Shown: piece after piece, positions 3 to 26,231 of the stretch
How the letters are laid out: every line of letters begins with the position of its first letter
How positions within the stretch are numbered: the first letter of the stretch is position 1
IMG/VR virus record: IMGVR_UViG_3300034093_001947
Length of the DNA stretch: 26,231 nucleotides
From: a virus
Lineage: Duplodnaviria > Heunggongvirae > Uroviricota > Caudoviricetes
Direction: 5' to 3' (one strand)
Translations under genes and position numbers: made by a program
Notes under the pieces: generated by a model
Database searches by the model: none
Seen by the model: only the letters and a program-made list of their open reading frames with translations
What the model was told of the DNA's origin: nothing

Positions 3-686
3 ATGATAGCCAACGATGCTATTGTTGAAGGCGAAGAAACATTTACTGTCACTATCATTACTACTGGAACTTATGCTCCAGGTGCTGGATCCAATTACCT
101 GCGTGTTAATATAGCAGACGGTAACACTGAAGGCAGTGAAAGCGGACACATACATTTGATCAGTGAGAATATGGCACAGACCAGCATATTCCTGGGCAAC
201 GATGACAAGTATGTCAAAGTGGCCGCAGATGATCAAATATACATAAATGTGCCAAATGTTAATACTAGTGCTACTTCACAGTTGTGGACCTTTGCCGGGG
301 ATGGTAGTTTAACACTGCCTGATGGTGGAGACATTAAAAATAGTTCCGGTACTTCAGTGTTAACAGTAGTTACAGGACAAGAAACCTACGAGTTTGATGG
401 TGTTAATACTACGCTAACGATTACTAATGTTACATTCAACTTACTGTTCTGTACACCGGCTGGTGGTTATAGTGGCAGTGATGGTCATACTGTTTTATTG
501 CCTGCTGGAACTGCAGGACAACGATTAGTTATTGTCAACATCTCCAGTCTTTGTACATTAACTGTAGATGGGGCCGTTGACGGTGCGGTAACTGTTGCTC
601 CTGAGGGAACAGCAGAATTAATTTATCTTGTTAGTACCGTCGTTACAGGTTGGTGGCCTCTGTATGGAACAACTCTTGTTACTTAA
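3..686 (+). CDS. C-terminal part of a virion/tail-fibre protein with a Calx-beta-like segment (probably 5'-truncated by the window edge)
   Basis: IANDAIVEGEETFTVTI resembles the Calx-beta signature. It is Thr/Gly/Val-rich and carries the WTFxxDGxLxLP motif also found twice in 2585..4981. The frame is open to the window edge. Confidence 0.6.
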   Translation: MIANDAIVEGEETFTVTIITTGTYAPGAGSNYLRVNIADGNTEGSESGHIHLISENMAQTSIFLGNDDKYVKVAADDQIYINVPNVNTSATSQLWTFAGDGSLTLPDGGDIKNSSGTSVLTVVTGQETYEFDGVNTTLTITNVTFNLLFCTPAGGYSGSDGHTVLLPAGTAGQRLVIVNISSLCTLTVDGAVDGAVTVAPEGTAELIYLVSTVVTGWWPLYGTTLVT

Positions 687-703: not shown

Positions 704-1411
704 ATGTCAATAACTATTAGATCAGCACAGACTATCAGCAACGGTGTTACACTGCGAGGTCACACGCCACCTCCACCTATTGTCACAGACGGCCTTATCG
801 CTCATCTAGATGCTGGCAATATAAACAGTTATCCAAGCCCGCAATCTGCCACATGGTTTGATATAAGTGGTCAAGGTGCTGATGCTTCATTAAATGGGAC
901 CGTGGGATTTGCTAACAGCGGTACTTCCAGTTACTTTATATTTGATGGCGACTCGGCAAATTGTATAACATCAAGCCTATCACAGAACTATCAAGATTGT
1001 ACACTGATATTTCAACCTGATTTCAGTTACAATGTAGGTGATGCTAATCTAGCATATGGACTAGGTGTTGATGCTGACCGTACCATGCGATTTGGTAATG
1101 CCGACGGATCAAGTCCATGGAGTATACAAAATCCAGGCAACAATGCTGATTGGGCATATCTAACAGCAACTAACTATTACTTAAACGGTACTGTTATTCC
1201 AGGAGCAGGGAATTTAGTCACAGGTTGGAATATACTAGGAGCCGCCAGAACCAATCAATCATGGGGATCTACTCCTTATGTATGGGGGAAAGGTTACATC
1301 AGTAGAGGATTCAAAGGCAAACTTGCTGTTATCCTACTTTACAATAGAGTGCTAACTGAAGCAGAACAACTACAGAACTATGCGGCTCTACGGGCAAGGT
1401 TCGGACTATGA
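704..1411 (+). CDS. Concanavalin A-like lectin/LamG-domain virion protein
   Basis: IVTDGLIAHLDAG..SYP..TWFDISG at the start and FKGKLAVILLYNRVLTEAEQLQNY at the end are typical of phage LamG_3-type domains. Confidence 0.75.
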   Translation: MSITIRSAQTISNGVTLRGHTPPPPIVTDGLIAHLDAGNINSYPSPQSATWFDISGQGADASLNGTVGFANSGTSSYFIFDGDSANCITSSLSQNYQDCTLIFQPDFSYNVGDANLAYGLGVDADRTMRFGNADGSSPWSIQNPGNNADWAYLTATNYYLNGTVIPGAGNLVTGWNILGAARTNQSWGSTPYVWGKGYISRGFKGKLAVILLYNRVLTEAEQLQNYAALRARFGL

Positions 1412-1416
1412 TAGGG

Positions 1417-1422
1417 TAAATA
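1417..1422 (+). promoter_or_regulatory. T4-like late promoter box TAAATA (representative of a recurrent motif)
   Basis: TAAATA also lies just upstream of starts at + 6069, 7276, 7656, 12751, 13109, 15664, 20084, 22179 and - 6020-6025, 12324-12329, 12667-12672, 20046-20051. Confidence 0.7.
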
Positions 1423-1428
1423 CACATT

Positions 1429-2571
1429 ATGACAGCAATAACATTTCCAACAACTGCCACAGTGGGCCAAAGTTATGTGGCTACCAACGCGGTAACCTAT
1501 GTATGGACCGGCAATCGTTGGTCTTCTAGTCAGGCAATCACTAACAATCAAGCAAAATACTATGTAGAAGGTGGCGATTCATCTTTTTCATATAACGAAA
1601 ACCTTGATGGTTTGTTAGACGGTGGCTTTTCCGACGGTGGAATGGGAGTTTTGTTAACTATAGTATCATCTTTCTTAACCATAGGCGGCTACGGTAATAA
1701 CGACGGAACTGTTACATACAATATTGACAGCACTGGGGCAACGGCAGCAGGCATTATTATTAATGGAATAACTGTAAATCATACACAGACAATTACCGGA
1801 ACTTTTGCCCAAGGCAACAACACAGTAAGTTGGAGTGGCTACGATATAGATAATCCACTATGGGGACAGATGGCATCTGTCACAGCCTATGTTGTGGACA
1901 GCAATGGCTATACATTCTACGCACTAGTTGAAGACCTGTGGGATATTCCATATGGTCCATGTCTAATAGCAGGCACAATGATGTCCTTGGCCAACGGCAC
2001 ACAAAAGAAAATTGAAGACATTACCTATGATGATGTATTAACAGTATGGAACTTTGATCTCGGTGAACTATCAGAAGCACGACCACTATGGGTCAAGCGT
2101 AAGCAAACATCATCAGCATATACTTTATTAAAGTTCAGCGACGGTACAGAATTACGTACTGTTGGACATCACATATTCAACAAACAAGCAGGCCAGTTTA
2201 CCAAGATTATCACAGATGACACACCAGTGGGCACAGTCACAGTCAACGAGCAAGGTCAAGAGATTACCATAGTCAGCAAAGAACTGGTAAAAGATGTTGT
2301 GGACTATTACAACATTTGGACACAGTATCACTTGAATGCCTATGCCAACGGAGTATTAACTGGTAACAGATACTGTAACATCTACCCTGTGGTAGATATG
2401 AAGTATGTAAAGGATGATAGAGCACTGCGTTCTGTAGAAGAATTTGCGGGCATTGACAGCAAGTATATCTCGGGTATGAGATTACAAGAACAGGTATTCG
2501 ATCTAGCGTTTATACAAACAATGGTAGATAGAATAGAAACATTAGACAGCCATGCTGTCACAACAGCATAA
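1429..2571 (+). CDS. Virion-associated protein with a C-terminal Hint (intein-like) domain
   Basis: N-terminal FPxxxxxGxxYxxxNxxTYxWxGxxW module shared with 6097..7278. Hint domain starts CLIAGTMMSLANG..KKIEDI. Confidence 0.8.
   Translation: MTAITFPTTATVGQSYVATNAVTYVWTGNRWSSSQAITNNQAKYYVEGGDSSFSYNENLDGLLDGGFSDGGMGVLLTIVSSFLTIGGYGNNDGTVTYNIDSTGATAAGIIINGITVNHTQTITGTFAQGNNTVSWSGYDIDNPLWGQMASVTAYVVDSNGYTFYALVEDLWDIPYGPCLIAGTMMSLANGTQKKIEDITYDDVLTVWNFDLGELSEARPLWVKRKQTSSAYTLLKFSDGTELRTVGHHIFNKQAGQFTKIITDDTPVGTVTVNEQGQEITIVSKELVKDVVDYYNIWTQYHLNAYANGVLTGNRYCNIYPVVDMKYVKDDRALRSVEEFAGIDSKYISGMRLQEQVFDLAFIQTMVDRIETLDSHAVTTA
1960..2367 (+). other. Hint domain (136 aa, no endonuclease)
   Basis: Block A Cys1 (CLIAGT, codon 1960). 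Block B TVGHH (TxxH). Block F/G VDYYNIWT..HLNAYANGVLTGN with terminal Asn at 2365-2367. The +1 residue is Arg. Confidence 0.8.
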
Positions 2572-2584
2572 TCGGAGCAGATAA

Positions 2585-4981
2585 ATGACAACAAGAATCA
2601 AACTACGTAGAGATACAGCCGCTAATTGGACTACTAACGATCCAGTATTGGCCTTGGGTGAAGCAGGCTATGACACTACCAATAATGAACTGAGAGTAGG
2701 TGACGGTACTACGGTATGGAGCGGATTAGAATCTATTGGCGGCACTGGTGATAAAATAACAGCAGAGAAAACTTATTCAGACAATTACAATGACGGTAGT
2801 GAACACACTTTCGCCTATACCACTGGATCTATTGCTGTACAGATGGGGAATGATAACGGACTGTATCTCAATGATCTGTTGTCAAGATGGGTGGAGTATT
2901 TTGATGGCAATCTTGCCTTTCCCTATAATTACAGCAACATCAACCTAGTGATAAATCCCGGCACTGATGATCTCGCATCAACAGTGACCAATGTAATCTC
3001 TAGTGGTAATCCACCATTGTACACCATAACACTGGGCACAGCACACCCAGAGCCTATAACAATAGATGACATTGATTTTAATTACACCTACGTTAACACC
3101 ATTGGGTTGGACATAGTTAACGGTGATGGTGAAAGTAACAGTTACTTTGGCATGGCTACCGGTGACGATGATATAACTATTCGTTCAGGAAGAGATATTA
3201 CGTTAGACGCCGCAGACGATGTTTACATATCAGGAGGCAATGAATTTCAGTTAACACTTGTAAACCAAGATGACATGAGTGCCAGTAGCGGAATTGATAT
3301 TCGCACAGAGACCACATCAACTGACTACACATGGACATTTAGGTTTGATGGCAGTCTAGAACTACCGGAAGGCTTGACTCTGCCAACTAAAAATAACAAG
3401 GGCTATGATGTCACTACCAACCTTAACGCACCAACACTACAGTTAAGCAACGACAGTCAAAACCAAGTTATCGTCACAGGACCAACAGCTACAGAAAACA
3501 ACACCAATGCTCAACGTATTGTGATCCAAGGCCAGCGTGGCTACGGCTCAACCAGCACCACAGGTGAAGGCGGCGATGTTTATATCTGGGGAGGAGTTGG
3601 CGGTGAAACCAACAGTAACAGTAATGGATGGGGCCAAGGTGGCGGCAGTGGTGGTGATATTAAACTACGCGGTGGCGAAGGCCTTAACGACACAGGTGGT
3701 TATGTTAGGATTGAAGGTGGCAATGTTGCTCACTTTAACACTTCTACCACAGGCAATCCTGGATTTGTGGAAATCACCGGCGGTGATGTAGTCATTGAGA
3801 ATGCCGCAGGCAGTAGTTATGGTGGCGATGTTAGAATCACAGGCGGTCGTGCTTACACAGCAACCACACAGTCTGGAGTTGTACAGGTAATCACAGGCGG
3901 CTACGCCAATGGTGATGTTCTTGGTGCCAATACTTGGACGTTTGCTAACGATGGTACTCTAACAGTACCGGGCGATATCCTTGACAGTGAAGGCGTTAGT
4001 GTATATATCGACACAGCGGATAGTCAATGGATTGTCGACCCAACTAATACGGGCACATACACCGCTGATGGCAGTTTACACAAACCTTTCAAAACTATCG
4101 CGTCGGCATTGGCCTATATTGAAGCAAGGATTGCTGATACTAGTTTAGTAATTGACATAAACGGTTCTATCGTTGATAACCCACAGTTTATTTTCCTAAT
4201 GAGTTCTATCACAGAGGATGTGGCGTTGACTCGTGGAAATATTTTTATCCGTAGCGAAACTCCCGATGCTGGCCATGTACCTATTTGGATTGAGGGACAT
4301 GTTACTATTACTCCGGCAAACACCGGCACAAACGCTATAAACGTTAATAGATTTGGCCTATTTAATATTGCCGTACGTACAACCAGTTCGAATCACGGTA
4401 TCGAGTTAACTGGATCTAATCCAGCAAAACTTTACCTAGACGATGTATACTGTTATCAAAACGATGCCACCAAGAGTTGTGTTTATGCGGATAACACTGG
4501 CACAGGTAGCAGAGTGGAAATGAATGATTGTCACATGGCTAGAGCCGGTGGCTCTGTATATCTAATAGATATCCAACGTGGATTTTGTATTATAAACAAT
4601 CTCGAAACTAACGGTACGGGACAAGTACTTAACCAAGCAAACGATTCATTAGGAACTATGCTGAGAAGTTCATTGGATGCCAACACTGGCTCCGTTATTA
4701 CCCTAAGTGGTTCAGTACAATGGGGTATGGGTGAAGTTATTCTTAACAACACTGGAGCAGGGGCCGATACTCACGGTGTTACTATGAGTGACTCGGCAAC
4801 CATGCAGTTTGGTGTGTGTACATTTAACATACCAGTTGGAGATGGTTCAAATCGTGCTATCAACGGTACTGGTACAAACACGGTACTGTATGCTGATCCA
4901 ATATTCCAATATGGTTCAACTAACAAGATATCAACTGAGATTACATTAGTTCCGTTGACTAAAACGTTTACAGCGGTATAA
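2585..4981 (+). CDS. Tail fibre/tailspike with Mtd N-terminal-like domain, Gly-rich repeats and C-terminal beta-helix-like region
   Basis: MTTRIKLRRDTAANWTTNDPVLALGEAGYDTTNNELRVGDG is an Mtd_N-like anchor. It contains GGDVxIxGG repeats and DGSLHKPFKTIASAL, a motif that precedes pectin-lyase-like beta-helices. Confidence 0.75.
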   Translation: MTTRIKLRRDTAANWTTNDPVLALGEAGYDTTNNELRVGDGTTVWSGLESIGGTGDKITAEKTYSDNYNDGSEHTFAYTTGSIAVQMGNDNGLYLNDLLSRWVEYFDGNLAFPYNYSNINLVINPGTDDLASTVTNVISSGNPPLYTITLGTAHPEPITIDDIDFNYTYVNTIGLDIVNGDGESNSYFGMATGDDDITIRSGRDITLDAADDVYISGGNEFQLTLVNQDDMSASSGIDIRTETTSTDYTWTFRFDGSLELPEGLTLPTKNNKGYDVTTNLNAPTLQLSNDSQNQVIVTGPTATENNTNAQRIVIQGQRGYGSTSTTGEGGDVYIWGGVGGETNSNSNGWGQGGGSGGDIKLRGGEGLNDTGGYVRIEGGNVAHFNTSTTGNPGFVEITGGDVVIENAAGSSYGGDVRITGGRAYTATTQSGVVQVITGGYANGDVLGANTWTFANDGTLTVPGDILDSEGVSVYIDTADSQWIVDPTNTGTYTADGSLHKPFKTIASALAYIEARIADTSLVIDINGSIVDNPQFIFLMSSITEDVALTRGNIFIRSETPDAGHVPIWIEGHVTITPANTGTNAINVNRFGLFNIAVRTTSSNHGIELTGSNPAKLYLDDVYCYQNDATKSCVYADNTGTGSRVEMNDCHMARAGGSVYLIDIQRGFCIINNLETNGTGQVLNQANDSLGTMLRSSLDANTGSVITLSGSVQWGMGEVILNNTGAGADTHGVTMSDSATMQFGVCTFNIPVGDGSNRAINGTGTNTVLYADPIFQYGSTNKISTEITLVPLTKTFTAV

Positions 4982-6096: not shown

Positions 6097-7278
6097 ATGG
6101 CTTTAAGTTTTCCACCAGATCCAGAACCGGGCGACACTTATGTAGCACCTAACGGCTACACCTACACCTGGGACGGCACCAAATGGTACGTCAGCAGCAG
6201 CGGCACGAGTGCCGGCGGCACAAGCCCTATTACCATTAAAGACGAAGGAGTAGCAGTCAACACACAGACTACTACCATTAACTTTATCGGTGCTGCTATC
6301 ACAGCAACTACTACTGGTAGCCAAGTTAACATCACTGTTTCTGCACAAGAATTAACCACTGCTACAACTAGTACATTGGGCGGAGTTAAGATTGGTTCAG
6401 GAATTAATATTACCAGTAGCGGAACTATCAGTGTTCGTGAAGGACTACAATATTGGACAGAAAGTAAAACTGTAGTAGACAGCAGTCAAACAGCAGTGGT
6501 CAGCCTAATTGTAACCGGTACACAGACCAACATTGATGCAGTGCTAAAAGCACAGGGATTAGGTGCTGTTGCCAACGATGATGCAGGAAATAAGCGTGGT
6601 GAATACGCAGTTGACTGGCAACGAATTAGAAGTACTACAGATCAAGTAGCCAGTGGTAACTACTCTGTTATCGCGGGTGGCAGCTTTAATCAGGCCACGG
6701 GATTACACAGTGTAGTTACTGGAGGTAATAATAACACTGCTGATGCAGACTATGCATTGGTATTAGGTGGTGTTAACGGTAATGCTAGAGGCATCAAAGG
6801 TGCTGTGATTGTTCCGCATTATGCCACAGGTGGACAGAGCAATTCAAGTGGCAAAATTCAAACAGGGCATTACCTACTAGGTGGTGATACTGTACTCAGT
6901 GCTAGTCCTGTGGATTTGACCACAGACAGTTCGGGTAACATAGATGCAACTAATCAGATTACTTTAGTTGACAATTCGGCAATTTACTTTTCAGGCACAG
7001 TTATTGCAAAAGAACTGTATCCTACAGCAAATCCAGAAATTGTAGTTTGGGACCTAAAAGGCACAGTGTATAGAAATACAGGTAACAGCACTACTAACTT
7101 ACTGTCAATTGTGAACCCAACAATTATTAGTGGCAATACTTCAACTACTTGGCAACTCAGTGTGTCCACTGAAAACAATATTGGATGCCTACTGGTACAG
7201 GTACAAGGCCCTAGCGATAAACAAATTCGTTGGGTAGCTAAGATAGAAACTATTGAAGTAGCCGACTCAGGGATGTAA
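6097..7278 (+). CDS. Tail fibre protein with adhesin-head (YadA/Hep_Hag-like) repeats
   Basis: N-terminal FPPDPEPGDTYVAPNGYTYTWDGTKW module, TATTSTLGGVKIG motif, and periodic ASGNYSVIAGG / ATGLHSVVTGG / ADADYALVLGG repeats. AGGA SD upstream. Confidence 0.7.
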   Translation: MALSFPPDPEPGDTYVAPNGYTYTWDGTKWYVSSSGTSAGGTSPITIKDEGVAVNTQTTTINFIGAAITATTTGSQVNITVSAQELTTATTSTLGGVKIGSGINITSSGTISVREGLQYWTESKTVVDSSQTAVVSLIVTGTQTNIDAVLKAQGLGAVANDDAGNKRGEYAVDWQRIRSTTDQVASGNYSVIAGGSFNQATGLHSVVTGGNNNTADADYALVLGGVNGNARGIKGAVIVPHYATGGQSNSSGKIQTGHYLLGGDTVLSASPVDLTTDSSGNIDATNQITLVDNSAIYFSGTVIAKELYPTANPEIVVWDLKGTVYRNTGNSTTNLLSIVNPTIISGNTSTTWQLSVSTENNIGCLLVQVQGPSDKQIRWVAKIETIEVADSGM

Positions 7279-10573: not shown

Positions 10574-11317
10574 ATGTTCACATTAACTAGAAACTCACTG
10601 ATAGTATTCCAAATACTAGCACATCTTTCATTCTTTGTACTGCTTTATTACGGCACACTTGCACAATGGGCCATTACCGCAGGACTGTATCTTTTCTTTG
10701 CCACTATCGGTGGTACAGTAACTTATCACAGATTACTGACTCACAGATCCTTTAAAGCACCCAAGTGGTTTGAATATTTTGGAACCGTTGTGGGATCAAT
10801 TGGTGGTGGTGGTTCTAGCCTAGGTTGGGTAGCTGTGCATAGAGAACATCACAAGTTTACTGATCTCGAGAAGGATCCCCACAGTCCCTGGTTTAAAGGT
10901 TTCTTTAGAGTACAATTTTTAAGTATGTTTGAAGTACCTAATATTCGTTACGTACCGGACCTGTTGCGTTCTAAATTTCATATGTGGATGCATCATTACT
11001 ACTGGCTAGTAAATTTAATTTATATCACAATCATCTGCCTAATCGATCCGTTTGCAATTTTCTATGCATACTTTGTTCCTACCTTATTTGTATGGCATGC
11101 CGGCAGTTTTACCAATACAGTAAATCATTCTCTAGGATATCAAAATTTTGACACCGGTGATCGTAGCACTAATAATCTAATCACAGGATATCTAATTGCC
11201 GGAGAAGGATGGCACAATAATCATCATTCTCGTGCTAGCGATCCGCAATTTGGTAAGAAGTGGTGGGAGTTTGATCTAGGTTGGCAAGTAATTAAGCTCG
11301 TGAAAAAGGACTCCTAG
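10574..11317 (+). CDS. Delta-9-type membrane fatty acid desaturase (DesC/Ole1-like)
   Basis: Three His boxes HRLLTH, HREHH and HNNHH, plus DPHSP, NTVNH and GEGWHNNHH motifs, and hydrophobic TM segments. Confidence 0.92.
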   Translation: MFTLTRNSLIVFQILAHLSFFVLLYYGTLAQWAITAGLYLFFATIGGTVTYHRLLTHRSFKAPKWFEYFGTVVGSIGGGGSSLGWVAVHREHHKFTDLEKDPHSPWFKGFFRVQFLSMFEVPNIRYVPDLLRSKFHMWMHHYYWLVNLIYITIICLIDPFAIFYAYFVPTLFVWHAGSFTNTVNHSLGYQNFDTGDRSTNNLITGYLIAGEGWHNNHHSRASDPQFGKKWWEFDLGWQVIKLVKKDS

Positions 11318-22249: not shown

Positions 22250-24595
22250 ATGACTATTCAAGTAGTTAAACGTAGTGGACAACGAGTTCCACTAGATATT
22301 TCAAAAATACAAAGACAAGTAGCATTTAGCTGCCACGGAATAGACGGAGTTAGTCCGTCTATGATCGAGATCAAAGCACAGTTAGAATTTCATGATGGCA
22401 TGACCACTAATACTATCGACGAATTGCTGTTAAAGGCAATGGTTGATCTAATTGACGAAGAAGAAAATCCCGAGATTAATAATGTTAACTATCAGTACGT
22501 AGCAGGCCGCCAACGTCTAAGTATGTTGCGTAAAGAAGTATACGGAGCATACGAGCCGCCTAAACTATTCAGCATTGTTAAGAAGAATGTTGAACTAGGC
22601 ATGTACACTAGCGAACTGCTAGACTGGTACACAGAAGACGAATGGAACATTATTGACCTATTCATCGATCATGCAAGAGACGAGCAATATACATTTGCTG
22701 CTATTGCACAGCTAGCAGAAAAGTATCTAGTACAGAATCGTGCCACTAATACAATATACGAAACTCCGCAGGTACGTTATGCAGTTGCAGCCGCTACGGC
22801 ATTTCATGCAGAGTCTAAAGATGCTAGACTAAAGTGGGTAAAAGAATACTACGAGTGTGCTCGAGACGGACACTTTACACTGGCCACTCCTGTTCTCGCC
22901 GGTCTAGGTACGACCACCAAACAATTTAGCAGTTGTGTGCTGATCAGCACTGACGATACACTGGACAGTATCTTTGCAAGCGGCGAAATGATGGCCAAAT
23001 ATGCTTCAAAACGAGCCGGTATCGGTCTAGAAATTGGCAGAATCAGACCTTTAGGTGCCCCAATTCGTAACGGTGAGATCAAGCATACAGGAATGATTCC
23101 TTTCTTGAAGAAATGGTTCGCAGACCTCCGCAGTTGCAGCCAGGGTGGTATCCGTAATGCATCATGCACAGTAACATATCCTATTTGGCACGCTCAGTTC
23201 GAAGATCTTATTGTGCTAAAGAACAATCAAGGTACTGAAGAAAATCGTGTACGACAAATGGATTACTCAGTTGTGGTTAACAAGATGTTTTGGAATCGTT
23301 ATAAGAATGGTGAAATGATGACATTGTTTGATCCAGCAGAAGTTCCGGATCTTTACGAAGCATACTATCGCAACTCGGCAGAGTTTGAAACATTGTATTT
23401 GAAATACGAGCAAGACAAGACAAAGAAAAAGAAAGTTGTATCGGCAGATGCGATATTCAAAGCTGGAATACTTAAAGAGCGTACTGATACTGGTCGTATC
23501 TATCTTGTTAACATTGACAACGTTATCAACCAAGGCTCGTTTGATACAACAGTTGATCCAATTTATCAATCCAATCTATGCCAAGAGATACTTTTACCTA
23601 CCCGTCCTTTCCAGAGAATTGAAGATCCAGAGGGACGAATTGCTCTTTGCACTCTTGGCAGCATCAACTGGGGAGCATTCCGTAACCCACAAGAGATGAA
23701 AAAAGCCTGTCGTGTGTTAGTACGTAGCCTAAGTAATTTGTTGAACTATCAAGACTTCTTAAGCATACAGAGCAAGCTGGCTAACACAGACTTTGAACCG
23801 TTAGGTGTTGGCATTACTAACTTGGCCTATTGGCATGCCCGTAAAGGATACAAGTACGGTGAAGCAGAAGCACTTGCAGAAGTTAAACGTTGGATGGAAC
23901 ACCAGGCATACTACCTTACCGAAACTAGTGTCGAGCTTGCCCAAGAACGTGGGCCATGCGGACGTAGTCAGCACACTTATTACGGTAAGGGAGTATTTCC
24001 TTGGGAACGCCGCAATCCCGGAGTTAACGAACTAACAGATTTCACTCCTAGCCTAGATTGGGAACCATTGCGAGCACGTATGATCAAATACGGTATTCGT
24101 AATGCTACACTAATGGCAGTGGCACCAGTTGAGTCTAGTTCAGTAGTATTAAACAGTACTAATGGAATTGAGATGCCAATGGAATTAATTTCTGTTAAAG
24201 AATCTAAAGCTGGATCGTTTGTACAGGTAGTACCAGAATATCGTCGCCTAAAGAATCGTTATCAGATGATGTGGGATCAGACCAACTGCGTTGATTATCT
24301 GAAGACAGCCGCAGTATTAGCAGCTTACATTGATCAATCATTGAGTACTAACACATTCTATAATCCTGCACACTTTGCTAACGGTAAGGTACCTGCTACA
24401 CTAATTGCCAAGAACTTGATGTTGGCATACAGGTGGGGCATTAAGACCATTTATTATAGCCTAATTAACAAGGTAGGTGCTAAGACTAACGTCACTGCAA
24501 CTACACAGGTTAATGGTATAAACGGATTTGCAATTAATGCGGCAGACAACGTGATCATTTATGATGACGCCGATTGCGAGGCATGTAAGTTATAA
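22250..24595 (+). CDS. nrdA: Class I ribonucleotide reductase alpha subunit with ATP cone
   Basis: ATP cone VVKRSG, TPQ, LATPV, FSSC (C225), SNLCQEI (N437/C439/E441), ALCTLGSIN (C462), APVESSS, KTIYY (Y730/Y731) and C-terminal DCEACKL. TAAATA at 22179-22184. Confidence 0.97.
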
Positions 24596-24924
24596 TGGAT
24601 CAAGTAACAATATCAGAATCGGCTGTTATTAAAATCACAGACCTACTAGCAGAGGAGAATAATCCTAAGTTAAAACTTAGGACATTTGTCCAAGGTGGCG
24701 GATGTTCTGGATTTCAGTACGGATTTACATTTGACGAAGAACAACACGAAGACGATTTTGTTGTAGAAAAACAAGGTGTAAAAATATTGATTGATGCAAT
24801 GAGTATGCAGTATCTTAGTGGTGCTGTAATTGATTACAAAGAAGATTTGCAAGGTAGTCAATTCAGTATTCAAAATCCTAATGCACAATCAACCTGTGGT
24901 TGTGGGAGCAGTTTTTCAGTATGA
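24595..24924 (+). CDS. erpA: A-type Fe-S carrier ErpA/IscA
   Basis: [27 protein letters not shown] and [14 protein letters not shown] (three Cys ligands). TAATG overlap with nrdA. Confidence 0.93.
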
Positions 24925-25469
24925 CCTATAGTTTTATTAGACATGTTCTACAAGAAGGCAAACCAGAAAAGTTGGAAATTATAAATCTACCTTATGATAC
25001 CAATGACCTTGAACCTGTGATCTCAGAAGACACCATCAATTACCATTATGGCAAATTAGCAAAAATTTATGCTGAACGGTACAACAAAAATGAAGGTGAT
25101 TCAGTTTTTAATGAAGCTGGTGTATTCTTACACAACATTTTGTTTCAGCAGTATCAAGCACCAACTAACTCCAATAAACCTATTGGTAGTATCTTAGAAT
25201 TTATTATCAAACATTATAAAGACTTTGACAAATTTAAAGAATCCTTTGCTAATGAGGCAATGGCTATTCAAGGCAGTGGTTGGGTCTATCTTGCCAAAGA
25301 CGGTAAAATTAAAACTATCGTCAATCACCAAATTAAAAAAGATATTGTGTTGTTAATTGATTGGTGGGAACATGCGTGGGCATTGGACTACAAACATGAC
25401 AAAAAGAAATACTTAGATAATCAGTGGAAGATTATCAACTGGGAGAAAATAAATGGCATACTCAGATAA
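24921..25469 (+). CDS. sod: Fe/Mn superoxide dismutase family protein (short, divergent)
   Basis: [27 protein letters not shown] and DWWEHAW. Start ATG 24921 overlaps the erpA stop (ATGA). Confidence 0.88.
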
Positions 25470-25827
25470 AGTTGTTGATCATTACGAAAACCCACGTAAT
25501 GTAGGTAAGTTTGAAATTGACGACACAGTTGGCACAGGTATGGTCGGAGCACCTGCTTGTGGAGATGTGATGAAGTTACAGATAAAGGTAGATGAAGATG
25601 GTATTATTAGAGATGCTCGTTTCAAGACATATGGATGCGGTTCAGCAATCGCCAGTTCGTCGTTGGTTACAGAGTGGGTTAAGGGTATGCATATTGATGA
25701 TGCTGTTAACCTTAAAAACTCCCAAATCGCCGAAGAACTAGCACTACCGCCTGTCAAGATACATTGCTCAATTCTAGCAGAAGATGCTATCAAAGCCGCA
25801 GTAGAAGATTATAGAAAGAAACATTAA
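25453..25827 (+). CDS. iscU: Fe-S cluster scaffold IscU
   Basis: [43 protein letters not shown] and LPPVKIHCSILAEDAIKAA. Confidence 0.96.
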   Translation: MAYSDKVVDHYENPRNVGKFEIDDTVGTGMVGAPACGDVMKLQIKVDEDGIIRDARFKTYGCGSAIASSSLVTEWVKGMHIDDAVNLKNSQIAEELALPPVKIHCSILAEDAIKAAVEDYRKKH

Positions 25828-26231
25828 TGTTAGAAACAATCTGTGACATAATGGTAGACGCTTATAAGCGTAACTGGATTACTAGCCGAGATGGTAACGT
25901 GAGTATTCGTCATCACGACCGTGATCACTTTTACATCACACCAAGCGGTGTACGTAAACAAACACTACAACCTGACCAGTTCAAGAAGATTGGCATTGAG
26001 AAAGGATTCTGGGATCAGCCTCCTCGACTGTATCATGCAACTAAAGAGTTAGACTATACTGAAATTAGTGCTAACCTGAAGCCTAGTGGGGAACTACCAT
26101 TGCACTTTGGTTTGCAAAAAGAAATGGGACAACACACAGGCGACGTTCGTGTAGTTGTACACGTTCACCCAACTTATTGCATTGCGGCAATGCATGCCGG
26201 TATTGATTTGAGTACTGTGAGTGCAGCCTTT
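25827..26231 (+). CDS. Class II aldolase/adducin family protein (FucA/MtnB-like), 3'-truncated by the window
   Basis: MLETICDIMVDAYKRNWITSRDGNVSIR...ITPSG...KPSGELPLH...VVHVHPTY. GNxSxR, TPSG, PSxE..H and HxH motifs are present. TAATG overlap with iscU. Confidence 0.85.
   Translation, partial: MLETICDIMVDAYKRNWITSRDGNVSIRHHDRDHFYITPSGVRKQTLQPDQFKKIGIEKGFWDQPPRLYHATKELDYTEISANLKPSGELPLHFGLQKEMGQHTGDVRVVVHVHPTYCIAAMHAGIDLSTVSAAF

Follow-up and report, generated by a model that had tools for sequence, protein, structure and literature searches.

What does a Hint (Hedgehog/intein) domain do near the end of a protein encoded among the tail-fibre genes of a phage? The question is raised by the gene at positions 1,429 to 2,571 of IMG/VR virus record IMGVR_UViG_3300034093_001947 (Caudoviricetes), a stretch of 26,231 nucleotides that is referred to below, as a whole, as the window. 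An original prediction, made from the letters of the window alone, read the product as a virion protein with a Hint domain that cannot splice and that would cleave itself or become conjugated to a target. The analysis presented here suggests that the last 203 residues (Hint, 178-313, and a tail of 67 amino acids) form a cassette that most likely cuts or transfers the outer tip of the protein that carries it. The reading that we favour, at a probability of roughly 0.45, is that this cassette is a removable maturation cap, with a thioester that is resolved by hydrolysis or thiolysis.

On its predicted model the protein reads as an N-terminal anchor motif, an immunoglobulin (Ig)-like sandwich, a Hint domain and a conserved tail, and these parts are laid out in the gene as follows.

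1429..2571, + strand: cassette gene, an open frame with an ATG start that encodes a 380-residue precursor (P0001), stop codon included
1429..1626, + strand: N-terminal motif region, residues 1-66, 'FPxxxxxGQxY...TYxWxGxxW', common to other large open reading frames (ORFs)
1636..1950, + strand: Ig/FN3-like beta-sandwich, residues ~70-174, the predicted mature C-terminal tip (VIA-align Z 8-9.5)
1957..1962, + strand: predicted scissile junction Pro177/Cys178 (Cys1 of Hint), placed by conservation of the Cys
1960..2367, + strand: Hint fold, residues 178-313, 136 residues, from structure and profile matches
2158..2172, + strand: block B, T244-V-G-H247-H248, with the Thr and one His conserved in the family
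2362..2370, + strand: G312-N313-R314, the last Hint residues and the +1 residue, from the alignment and the aligned structure ranges
2368..2568, + strand: C-terminal extension (tail), residues 314-380, 67 residues, conserved, a beta-hairpin and three helices

The ORF and the residues on which the original prediction was built (Cys178, TxxH at 244-247, G312-N313, R314 and the 67-residue tail) were all found; Cys178 stands in the context 'GPCLIAGT', and H301-x-N303 is also present. What had been described as one tail-type N-terminal module proved to be two parts, a shared motif of about 50-66 residues and then the Ig/FN3-like sandwich of residues ~70-174.

An AlphaFold2 model of the protein, built from 121 homologues, reached a mean pLDDT of 84. 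It contains a small N-terminal region, a stretch of low confidence (residues 46-70), the Ig/FN3-like domain (~70-174), the Hint domain (175-313) and the tail, and model residues 67-175 are matched by FN3 and Ig domains with the Z values listed above. Comparison of residues 175-313 with solved structures (VIA-align) gave Z 17.8 at 14% identity for BIL2 of the Tetrahymena BUBL locus (6tmm), Z 16.7 at 23% identity and a target-length-normalised TM of 0.85 for a BIL domain of C. thermocellum (2lwy), Z of about 16.5 for the mini-inteins 4o1r and 6riz, and Z 15.1 for the Hedgehog domain HhC (1at0). Foldseek, applied to the Hint region, returned E 1e-7 and TM values, by target length, of up to 0.88, and a protein-language-model atlas also indicated Hint and Vint clusters. 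When a profile of the module, made from 20 sequences, was run against the PDB, the sole significant match was again Tetrahymena BIL2 (E 4e-5); this alignment covers the whole Hint domain and pairs Cys1, block B and the 'HNxFAxGxL' end. On the model, then, residues 175-313 are confirmed as a Hint fold whose nearest solved structures are BIL domains and HhC, at Z 15-18, and the original view of it as a BIL/Hog-type Hint domain, and not an intein, is supported. The ranges aligned with inteins and with BIL stop at model residue 313, and 1at0 pairs 178..315 with 258..402; position 313 is thereby the structural equivalent of the intein terminal Asn and of Hedgehog (Hh) C400 (C143), an equivalence defined by the aligned ranges only.

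This fold is well hidden from searches with one sequence. None of these was significant (Pfam, AXH at 0.081; PHROGs, 0.053; PDB, 0.19 with 8w20), and against Pfam the single window protein had no Hint match at E<=1, so that a Hint call made from motifs only was not trivial. Across 20 members of the family the Pfam matches were sub-threshold: Hint in 9/20 (best 3.9e-5), Hom_end_hint in 11/20, Hint_2 in 7/20 (best 0.0027) and PT-HINT in 1/20 (0.0014). A search with the Hint, Hint_2 and PT-HINT profiles had been proposed at the outset; it does return matches in some of the 20 members, but all of them lie below the curated cut-off. The tail is predicted to form a short hairpin and three helices, with a pLDDT near 90 as part of the full model and of 79 on its own. 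Folded alone it had no Foldseek match and a best VIA Z of 3.0, and the best E in a profile search of the PDB was 1.6; it is without a detectable relative by fold or by sequence.

Which part of the intein chemistry has been kept may be judged from conservation, counted over 263 aligned members of the family, with a closer alignment of 121 homologues. Cys1 (C178) is present in 262/263 and in 121/121 of the closer homologues, G182, T183, H301 and N303 are essentially invariant, the block-B Thr (T244) occurs in 256/263, and one block-B His is essentially invariant. The original prediction was to count as refuted if this Cys and His were not conserved in homologues, and on that point it stands. Position 312 is Ser or Gly throughout and never His, and the +1 residue is Arg (R314) in 252/263, in agreement with the claim that there is neither a penultimate His nor a +1 nucleophile. 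The residue that precedes Cys1 (-1) is variable (P, I, L, V or M), and position 313 is N in 127 members, C in 115, and M, L, I, S, T or H in the rest. The terminal Asn is therefore real in the window but specific to a subfamily: it is kept in 108/120 of the window's subfamily, in which H301-x-N303 of block F is invariant, and in a gut clade it is Leu ('LTSLR'). The TxxH signature also describes the window subfamily, which has block B as 'TVGHH[VI]FN' with an 'S/G-N-R' end, but not the other subfamily, half of the family, which has 'T[FI]xQHRIFN' (T-x-x-Q-H-R, with a one-residue indel in block B) and an 'S-C-R' end. Since Cys1 and the block-B Thr and His are kept and position 313 varies, the residues for the N-S acyl shift have been retained and the residue for Asn cyclisation has not, and Asn-dependent C-terminal cleavage cannot be the common chemistry of the family.

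The tail is conserved to the same level as the Hint domain, with near-invariant N317, Y319, P320, K328, G349, R351, L352, E354 and Q355. This strong conservation fits the suggested analogy with the Hog domain, in which Hint is joined to an adduct-recognition region (PMC2362128). As a separate observation, G312 together with Y315-C316 is found in the window's closest subgroup alone (40/263), the other members having S312 and F315-N316; Cys316 (window 2374-2376) provides this subgroup with a second Cys, three residues past the end of Hint.

Hint domains form a (thio)ester at their first residue. From this chemistry and the residues that are kept, we infer the following series of events, in which the gene product would be the precursor of a protein of the tail-fibre cluster and its last 203 residues a self-contained autoprocessing cassette of the BIL/Hog type. 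The Hint domain would fold, and Cys178, aided by block B (T244, H247/H248), would attack the carbonyl of Pro177 in an N-S acyl shift, after which the N-terminal 177 residues, with the anchor motif and the Ig-like tip, would be held by a thioester only. Resolution of the thioester would then let the Hint-tail unit depart. By default this would occur by hydrolysis or thiolysis and would leave a free C-terminus at Pro177, so that the cassette would serve as a host-independent cap for maturation or assembly, a functional analogue, with other chemistry, of the self-cleaving C-terminal chaperone of tailspikes. Published precedents exist: HhC uses only the N-S shift (PMC7664689, PMC12054796), and BIL domains without a +1 nucleophile yield mainly cleaved products (PMC7664689; also PMC7765530), a fact that makes the statement that the window protein cannot splice a plausible one.

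The distribution of the cassette is that of a discrete unit. A protein search returned 291 metagenomic homologues, none of them named, and a profile search over 1.84 billion cluster representatives (clusters at 50% identity) found 2673 clusters at E<=1e-10, of which at least 814 reach E<=1e-30. Counted from Cys1 to the stop, the cassette spans 200-213 residues in 40/40 complete IMG/VR loci, whereas the part of the protein ahead of it (the N-part) can be as short as 126 residues or longer than 1550. The module lies at the C-terminus in about 250/263 proteins, two exceptions being in-frame fusions to a HAD_SAK_2-like domain, and the start of the cassette is always exactly a Cys at a domain boundary. 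In 360 pairs of proteins, cassettes that are 92-99.5% identical are mounted on N-parts that resemble one another little or not at all. The roughly 100 residues ahead of Cys1 vary far more than the cassette and are usually an Ig-like sandwich, with two main types (137/282 and 75/282) and 34 BLAST groups, which makes the recurrent unit an Ig-like tip followed by Hint and tail. Further toward the N-terminus the carriers are Mtd_N-like, T4 gp9/10-like, built of collagen repeats or provided with Laminin_G_3, and two of the N-parts match proteins of deposited phages named 'baseplate wedge tail fiber protein connector' and 'tail fiber protein'. Marine, freshwater, gut and soil phage cassettes and those of bacterial pilin-like proteins are 39-60% identical to one another, with about 30 invariant residues. 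This constancy across hosts and habitats is unlike what would be expected of a receptor-binding tip.

Is the cassette peculiar to phages? Among species-representative bacterial genomes there were 28 cassette matches, all in metagenome-assembled genomes, from Clostridia, Alphaproteobacteria and Bacilli/Tenericutes. At least 15 of these 28 carriers have prepilin-like N-termini ('KGITLIALI...', 'GRSMVEMLGVLAVIG...', 'MKGFTLTELL...'), for which N_methyl scores 17-19 bits, slightly below its cut-off, and Flg_new or Ig-like repeats are also borne between the prepilin-like N-terminus and the cassette. Some carriers occur as 2-3 tandem paralogues at single Clostridia loci, with cassettes 91-94% identical and N-parts that are more divergent. 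The loci are these.

L075:4735-8506, L073:150-6127 and L058:4564-6642: bacterial carrier loci
L059, L062, L063, L065, L066, L068, L072, L074, L076, L078 and L079: further bacterial carrier loci

The cassette gene of L075 is flanked by SecA and MutL, and the neighbours of the one in L058 appear, as judged from their N-terminal sequences only, to be bL25, Pth, YchF, Era and Tgt. To us the bacterial carriers look like 'modular pilins' with a self-processing C-terminus. The presence of prepilin-like carriers on chromosomes implies that the cassette is not specific to phages and that it caps extracellular filament proteins in general. The term 'virion protein' fits the window, where the neighbours are tail-fibre genes, but it is too narrow for a module that also caps chromosomal prepilin-like surface proteins of bacteria.

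Several observations weigh against the removable cap. No processed form has been documented for any member of the family, and an orthologue consisting of the N-part only (about 177 residues, ending near residue 177) was not found. Pro precedes Cys1 in the window protein and in some 40% of family members, and at -1 it strongly slows thioester formation in engineered inteins. High conservation of the whole module makes the invariant Cys1 less telling than it might seem. The tail has about ten near-invariant polar residues, which would be needless in a simple leaving group and which favour a more specific role, namely transfer. Finally, there are fibres with the same shaft that end in ordinary alternative C-terminal tips, the pattern of an exchangeable receptor-binding tip. 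These points lead to the alternatives that follow.

The first of these, which we consider possible although clearly less probable than the cap, is that the thioester at Cys178 is resolved in the manner of Hedgehog or BUBL by a specific nucleophile, which the tail, as an adduct-recognition region, would position or recruit. An Ig-like tip so processed would be attached covalently, by way of Pro177, to a small molecule (lipid or sugar), a Lys of another virion or pilus protein, or an amine or hydroxyl of the host surface. In a fuller version, on which we would place a little less weight again, the cassette is the prokaryotic and viral counterpart of Hog, and its thioester welds the tip of the filament to one defined nucleophile; this could be a lipid or sugar, another subunit of the virion or pilus, or the host surface, the last of which would amount to covalent and irreversible adsorption. 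The architecture argues for transfer, a Hint domain with a conserved extension of about 65-70 residues being that of the Hog domain (PMC2362128), and so does a tail that equals the catalytic core in conservation and in which the polar residues N317, K328, R351, E354 and Q355 are invariant. The best match, both by sequence and by structure, is BIL2, from the BUBL locus, and the carriers are all extracellular filaments, phage fibres or pilin-like, where ligation independent of ATP would be useful. In half of the family, moreover, a Cys occupies the position equivalent to Hh C143, which takes over the thioester as a branched intermediate (PMC12054796), and these Cys313 variants recall that residue. 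However, a relay of the C143 type is not universal, since the window has Asn at 313 and the gut clade has Leu; the -1 residue is Pro, Ile, Leu or Val, as opposed to the Gly of Hh and of ubiquitin-like conjugation; the tail has no similarity to the SRR of Hh or to any known fold; and neither a nucleophile nor a target was identified.

A gene that could supply an accessory enzyme for transfer is found in the Cys313 subfamily, where a HAD_SAK_2-type gene follows the cassette gene in 21/40 viral loci.

L033:4956-5471, L029:10356-10850, L038:10600-11043 and 18 further IMG/VR loci: HAD_SAK_2 (PF18143) genes, 150-170 amino acids

These genes start 33 nucleotides past the stop codon of the cassette gene or overlap it, and in two proteins, P0252 and P0262, the domain is fused in frame behind the tail. 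Its motif I reads 'FLDHYGV', with the second Asp of DxD missing. The absence of this gene from the window counts against transfer.

It is less likely again that the tip has no catalytic function, and that Ig, Hint and tail remain intact in the virion as a distal knob for binding or structure, with the Cys, Thr and His kept for folding. Receptor-binding modules that can be exchanged typically appear as near-identical tips on different shafts, and the homologues of one shaft, the N-part of L017, carry the cassette in 54/120 cases and unrelated C-terminal tips at the same position in the remainder. A Pro at -1 may also disfavour the acyl shift, and no processed form has been documented. On the other hand, conservation over phages and over bacteria of different phyla and habitats is the opposite of the usual evolution of receptor-binding domains, it is precisely the triad of the N-S shift that is retained while -1 and 313 vary, and every cassette starts exactly with a Cys at the domain boundary. 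Fibre homologues that lack the cassette were tested and do not end in the domain that precedes Cys1; the lone apparent case, P0357, is seemingly cut about 28 residues into Hint.

A reading that we think very improbable, and which concerns the window subfamily, is double processing like that of A-type BIL domains, in which Asn313 would cyclise, the tail would be cut off as well, and Hint would be excised, the 177-residue N-part and the 67-residue tail being released separately or ligated at low yield. Asn313 does stand at the position of the intein terminal Asn in most members of this subfamily, block F with H301-x-N303 is invariant there, and cleavage at both ends is known for A-type BILs (PMC7765530; PMC7664689). 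However, position 312 is Gly or Ser in place of the penultimate His, and the tail is predicted to be structured, with the pLDDT values given above. Cys, Leu or Met stands at position 313 instead of Asn in over half of the family, with no loss of conservation in the tail, from which it follows that the shared function does not need a step at Asn313. Two further candidates were rejected: a polymorphic-toxin PT-HINT, since the C-terminal part is conserved and short (67 residues), no immunity-like gene follows it and the profile matched 1/20 members (E 0.0014), and a mobile intein, since there is no endonuclease, no insertion and no +1 nucleophile.

We return to the removable cap and to the setting in which it would act. 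The cassette gene lies 17 nucleotides past ORF 704-1411 and 13 nucleotides ahead of ORF 2585-4981, on the same strand, between the following features.

704..1411, + strand: LamG-like virion protein of 235 amino acids (weak Laminin_G_3, phrog_24074, phrog_8510)
1416..1422, + strand: GTAAATA box, read directly, 6 nucleotides 5' of the ATG of the cassette gene
2585..4981, + strand: tail-fibre protein of 798 amino acids with an Mtd_N N-terminus (Mtd_N E 9.6e-16, several tail-fibre PHROGs)

At 18 loci a homologue of the LamG-like gene adjoins the cassette gene, and other phages have proteins in which Laminin_G_3 is fused to the cassette and directly precedes it, a link of the Rosetta-stone type to 704-1411. 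Between the GTAAATA box and the ATG there is no obvious Shine-Dalgarno sequence; the box is a possible late-promoter-like element of the T4 type. The motif of the first 50-66 residues recurs in several large ORFs of two complete phage genomes (G001 and G002), begins another ORF of the window, 6097-7278 (at 6097-6186), and exists as free-standing proteins of 68 amino acids (P0265-P0280; 70-83% identity) on related contigs of up to 334 kb. Such recurrence suggests that it is likely to be an attachment or anchor module, and probably a docking motif common to a set of fibre proteins.

The window is probably a piece of a jumbo tailed phage, because relatives of the cassette protein occur in complete phages of 320-355 kb: L005 (66% identity) and L012 (58%, over the cassette only) lie in complete virus records of 354,680 and 322,512 bp. 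The two complete genomes, G001 and G002, have one cassette each and encode a Terminase_6N protein, on which account they are taken to be tailed phages. In checks of these two genomes Phage_sheath_1 was not found, and a search for NCLDV capsid proteins gave no match, as did its control. INPHARED held no match for the 8-kb region (megablast) or for the cassette protein (tblastn). Elsewhere in the window there is a second fibre gene (Mtd_N/pectate-lyase). The window also holds auxiliary genes that are unusual for a phage fragment (4984-5574 on the - strand, 10574-11317 and 24595-26231), among them a QueC/PP-loop-like protein and a fatty-acid desaturase; after the large subunit of RNR come, in a row, an IscA-like protein (Fe-S_biosyn), an Fe/Mn superoxide dismutase, a NifU/IscU-like protein and a class II aldolase-like protein.

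Phage fibres are known to mature by two routes, with the help of separate chaperones or by means of C-terminal domains that cleave themselves with a Ser-Lys pair. A Hint/thioester cassette would be a third and chemically different solution, and one that seems to be widespread in uncultured phages. The bacterial carriers, from gut Clostridia and from Alphaproteobacteria, suggest in addition a general device for the processing of extracellular filaments that needs neither ATP nor accessory enzymes. Among open-access papers and bioRxiv, none was found that connects tail fibres, tailspikes or pilins with Hint or intein-like domains, and the mentions of Hint that a literature search found in phage papers concern inteins of terminases or helicases. 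No curated model that captures the family was found, either with the single sequence or with 20 members against Pfam; neither Pfam nor PHROGs picks the family up, and it merits a model of its own.

How does the cassette compare with systems that are already known? The closest predicted viral structure is a protein of 'Gaeavirus sp.' (A0A3G5A239 in BFVD; 31% identity in 356 columns, E 2.7e-29). This metagenomic entry, 523 amino acids long, uncharacterised and assigned to a giant-virus bin, is probably a member of the family. It is already labelled, automatically, as a Hint domain-containing protein, so that the bare domain call is not new; what appears to be new, from sequence comparison, is a Hog-like cassette of cargo, Hint and extension on phage fibres and bacterial pilin-like proteins. 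With class 1 inteins (gp41-1, 6qaz; NpuDnaB, 4o1r) the cassette shares the fold, at Z of about 16.5, and blocks A and B and an F-like block. It differs from them in that it is not inserted in a host protein, has no Cys, Ser or Thr at +1, no penultimate His and no homing endonuclease, does not conserve the terminal Asn, and has a C-terminal flank that co-evolves with Hint. Among the homologue matches there was no protein that combines an N-part with the tail and lacks Hint, as an intein-free allele would. The Peptidase_S74-type chaperones (PMC3828593, PMC3357383) are similar as conserved C-terminal cassettes on many phage fibres whose removal by autoproteolysis is expected, a likeness that is a functional analogy only: they employ a Ser-Lys dyad in a trimer, whereas the window protein is predicted to employ a Cys thioester in a Hint fold. 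For the cassette protein and members of its family there was no Peptidase_S74 match in Pfam and no S74 structure among the fold matches.

The BIL domains (2lwy, 6tmm/6y75) are closer. Like the cassette they have Cys1 and block B, lack a +1 nucleophile and reside in variable extracellular proteins rather than in conserved enzymes. The A-type BILs have a highly conserved C-terminal His-Asn (PMC7765530), unlike the cassette, which has no His312 and has Asn313 in about half of its members. In B-type BILs the N-terminal intein motifs are present and the C-terminal motif is absent (PMC7765530), and the features of the cassette fit this pattern, but its Hint_2 matches are only weak (7/20, best E 0.0027). 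Unlike BIL domains, the cassette has a conserved extension of 67 residues and is strictly C-terminal, on phage fibres and pilin-like proteins.

With the Hog domain of Hedgehog (1at0) the resemblance is also one of plan. The order of cargo, Cys1-Hint and a C-terminal extension of about 65-70 residues is the same, only the N-terminal chemistry is conserved in both, and in 115/263 members of the family, about half, a Cys is found at the position equivalent to C143. The differences are that the window protein has Asn rather than Cys at this position and Pro rather than Gly at -1, that the tail is without detectable similarity to the SRR, and that the cassette is found in a prokaryotic or viral setting without sterol. 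Should transfer be directed by the tail, the cassette would be the first system of cargo, Hint and adduct-recognition region of the Hog type outside the eukaryotes, with implications for how Hedgehog autoprocessing arose, and it would offer protein engineering a compact tag that cleaves or ligates itself.

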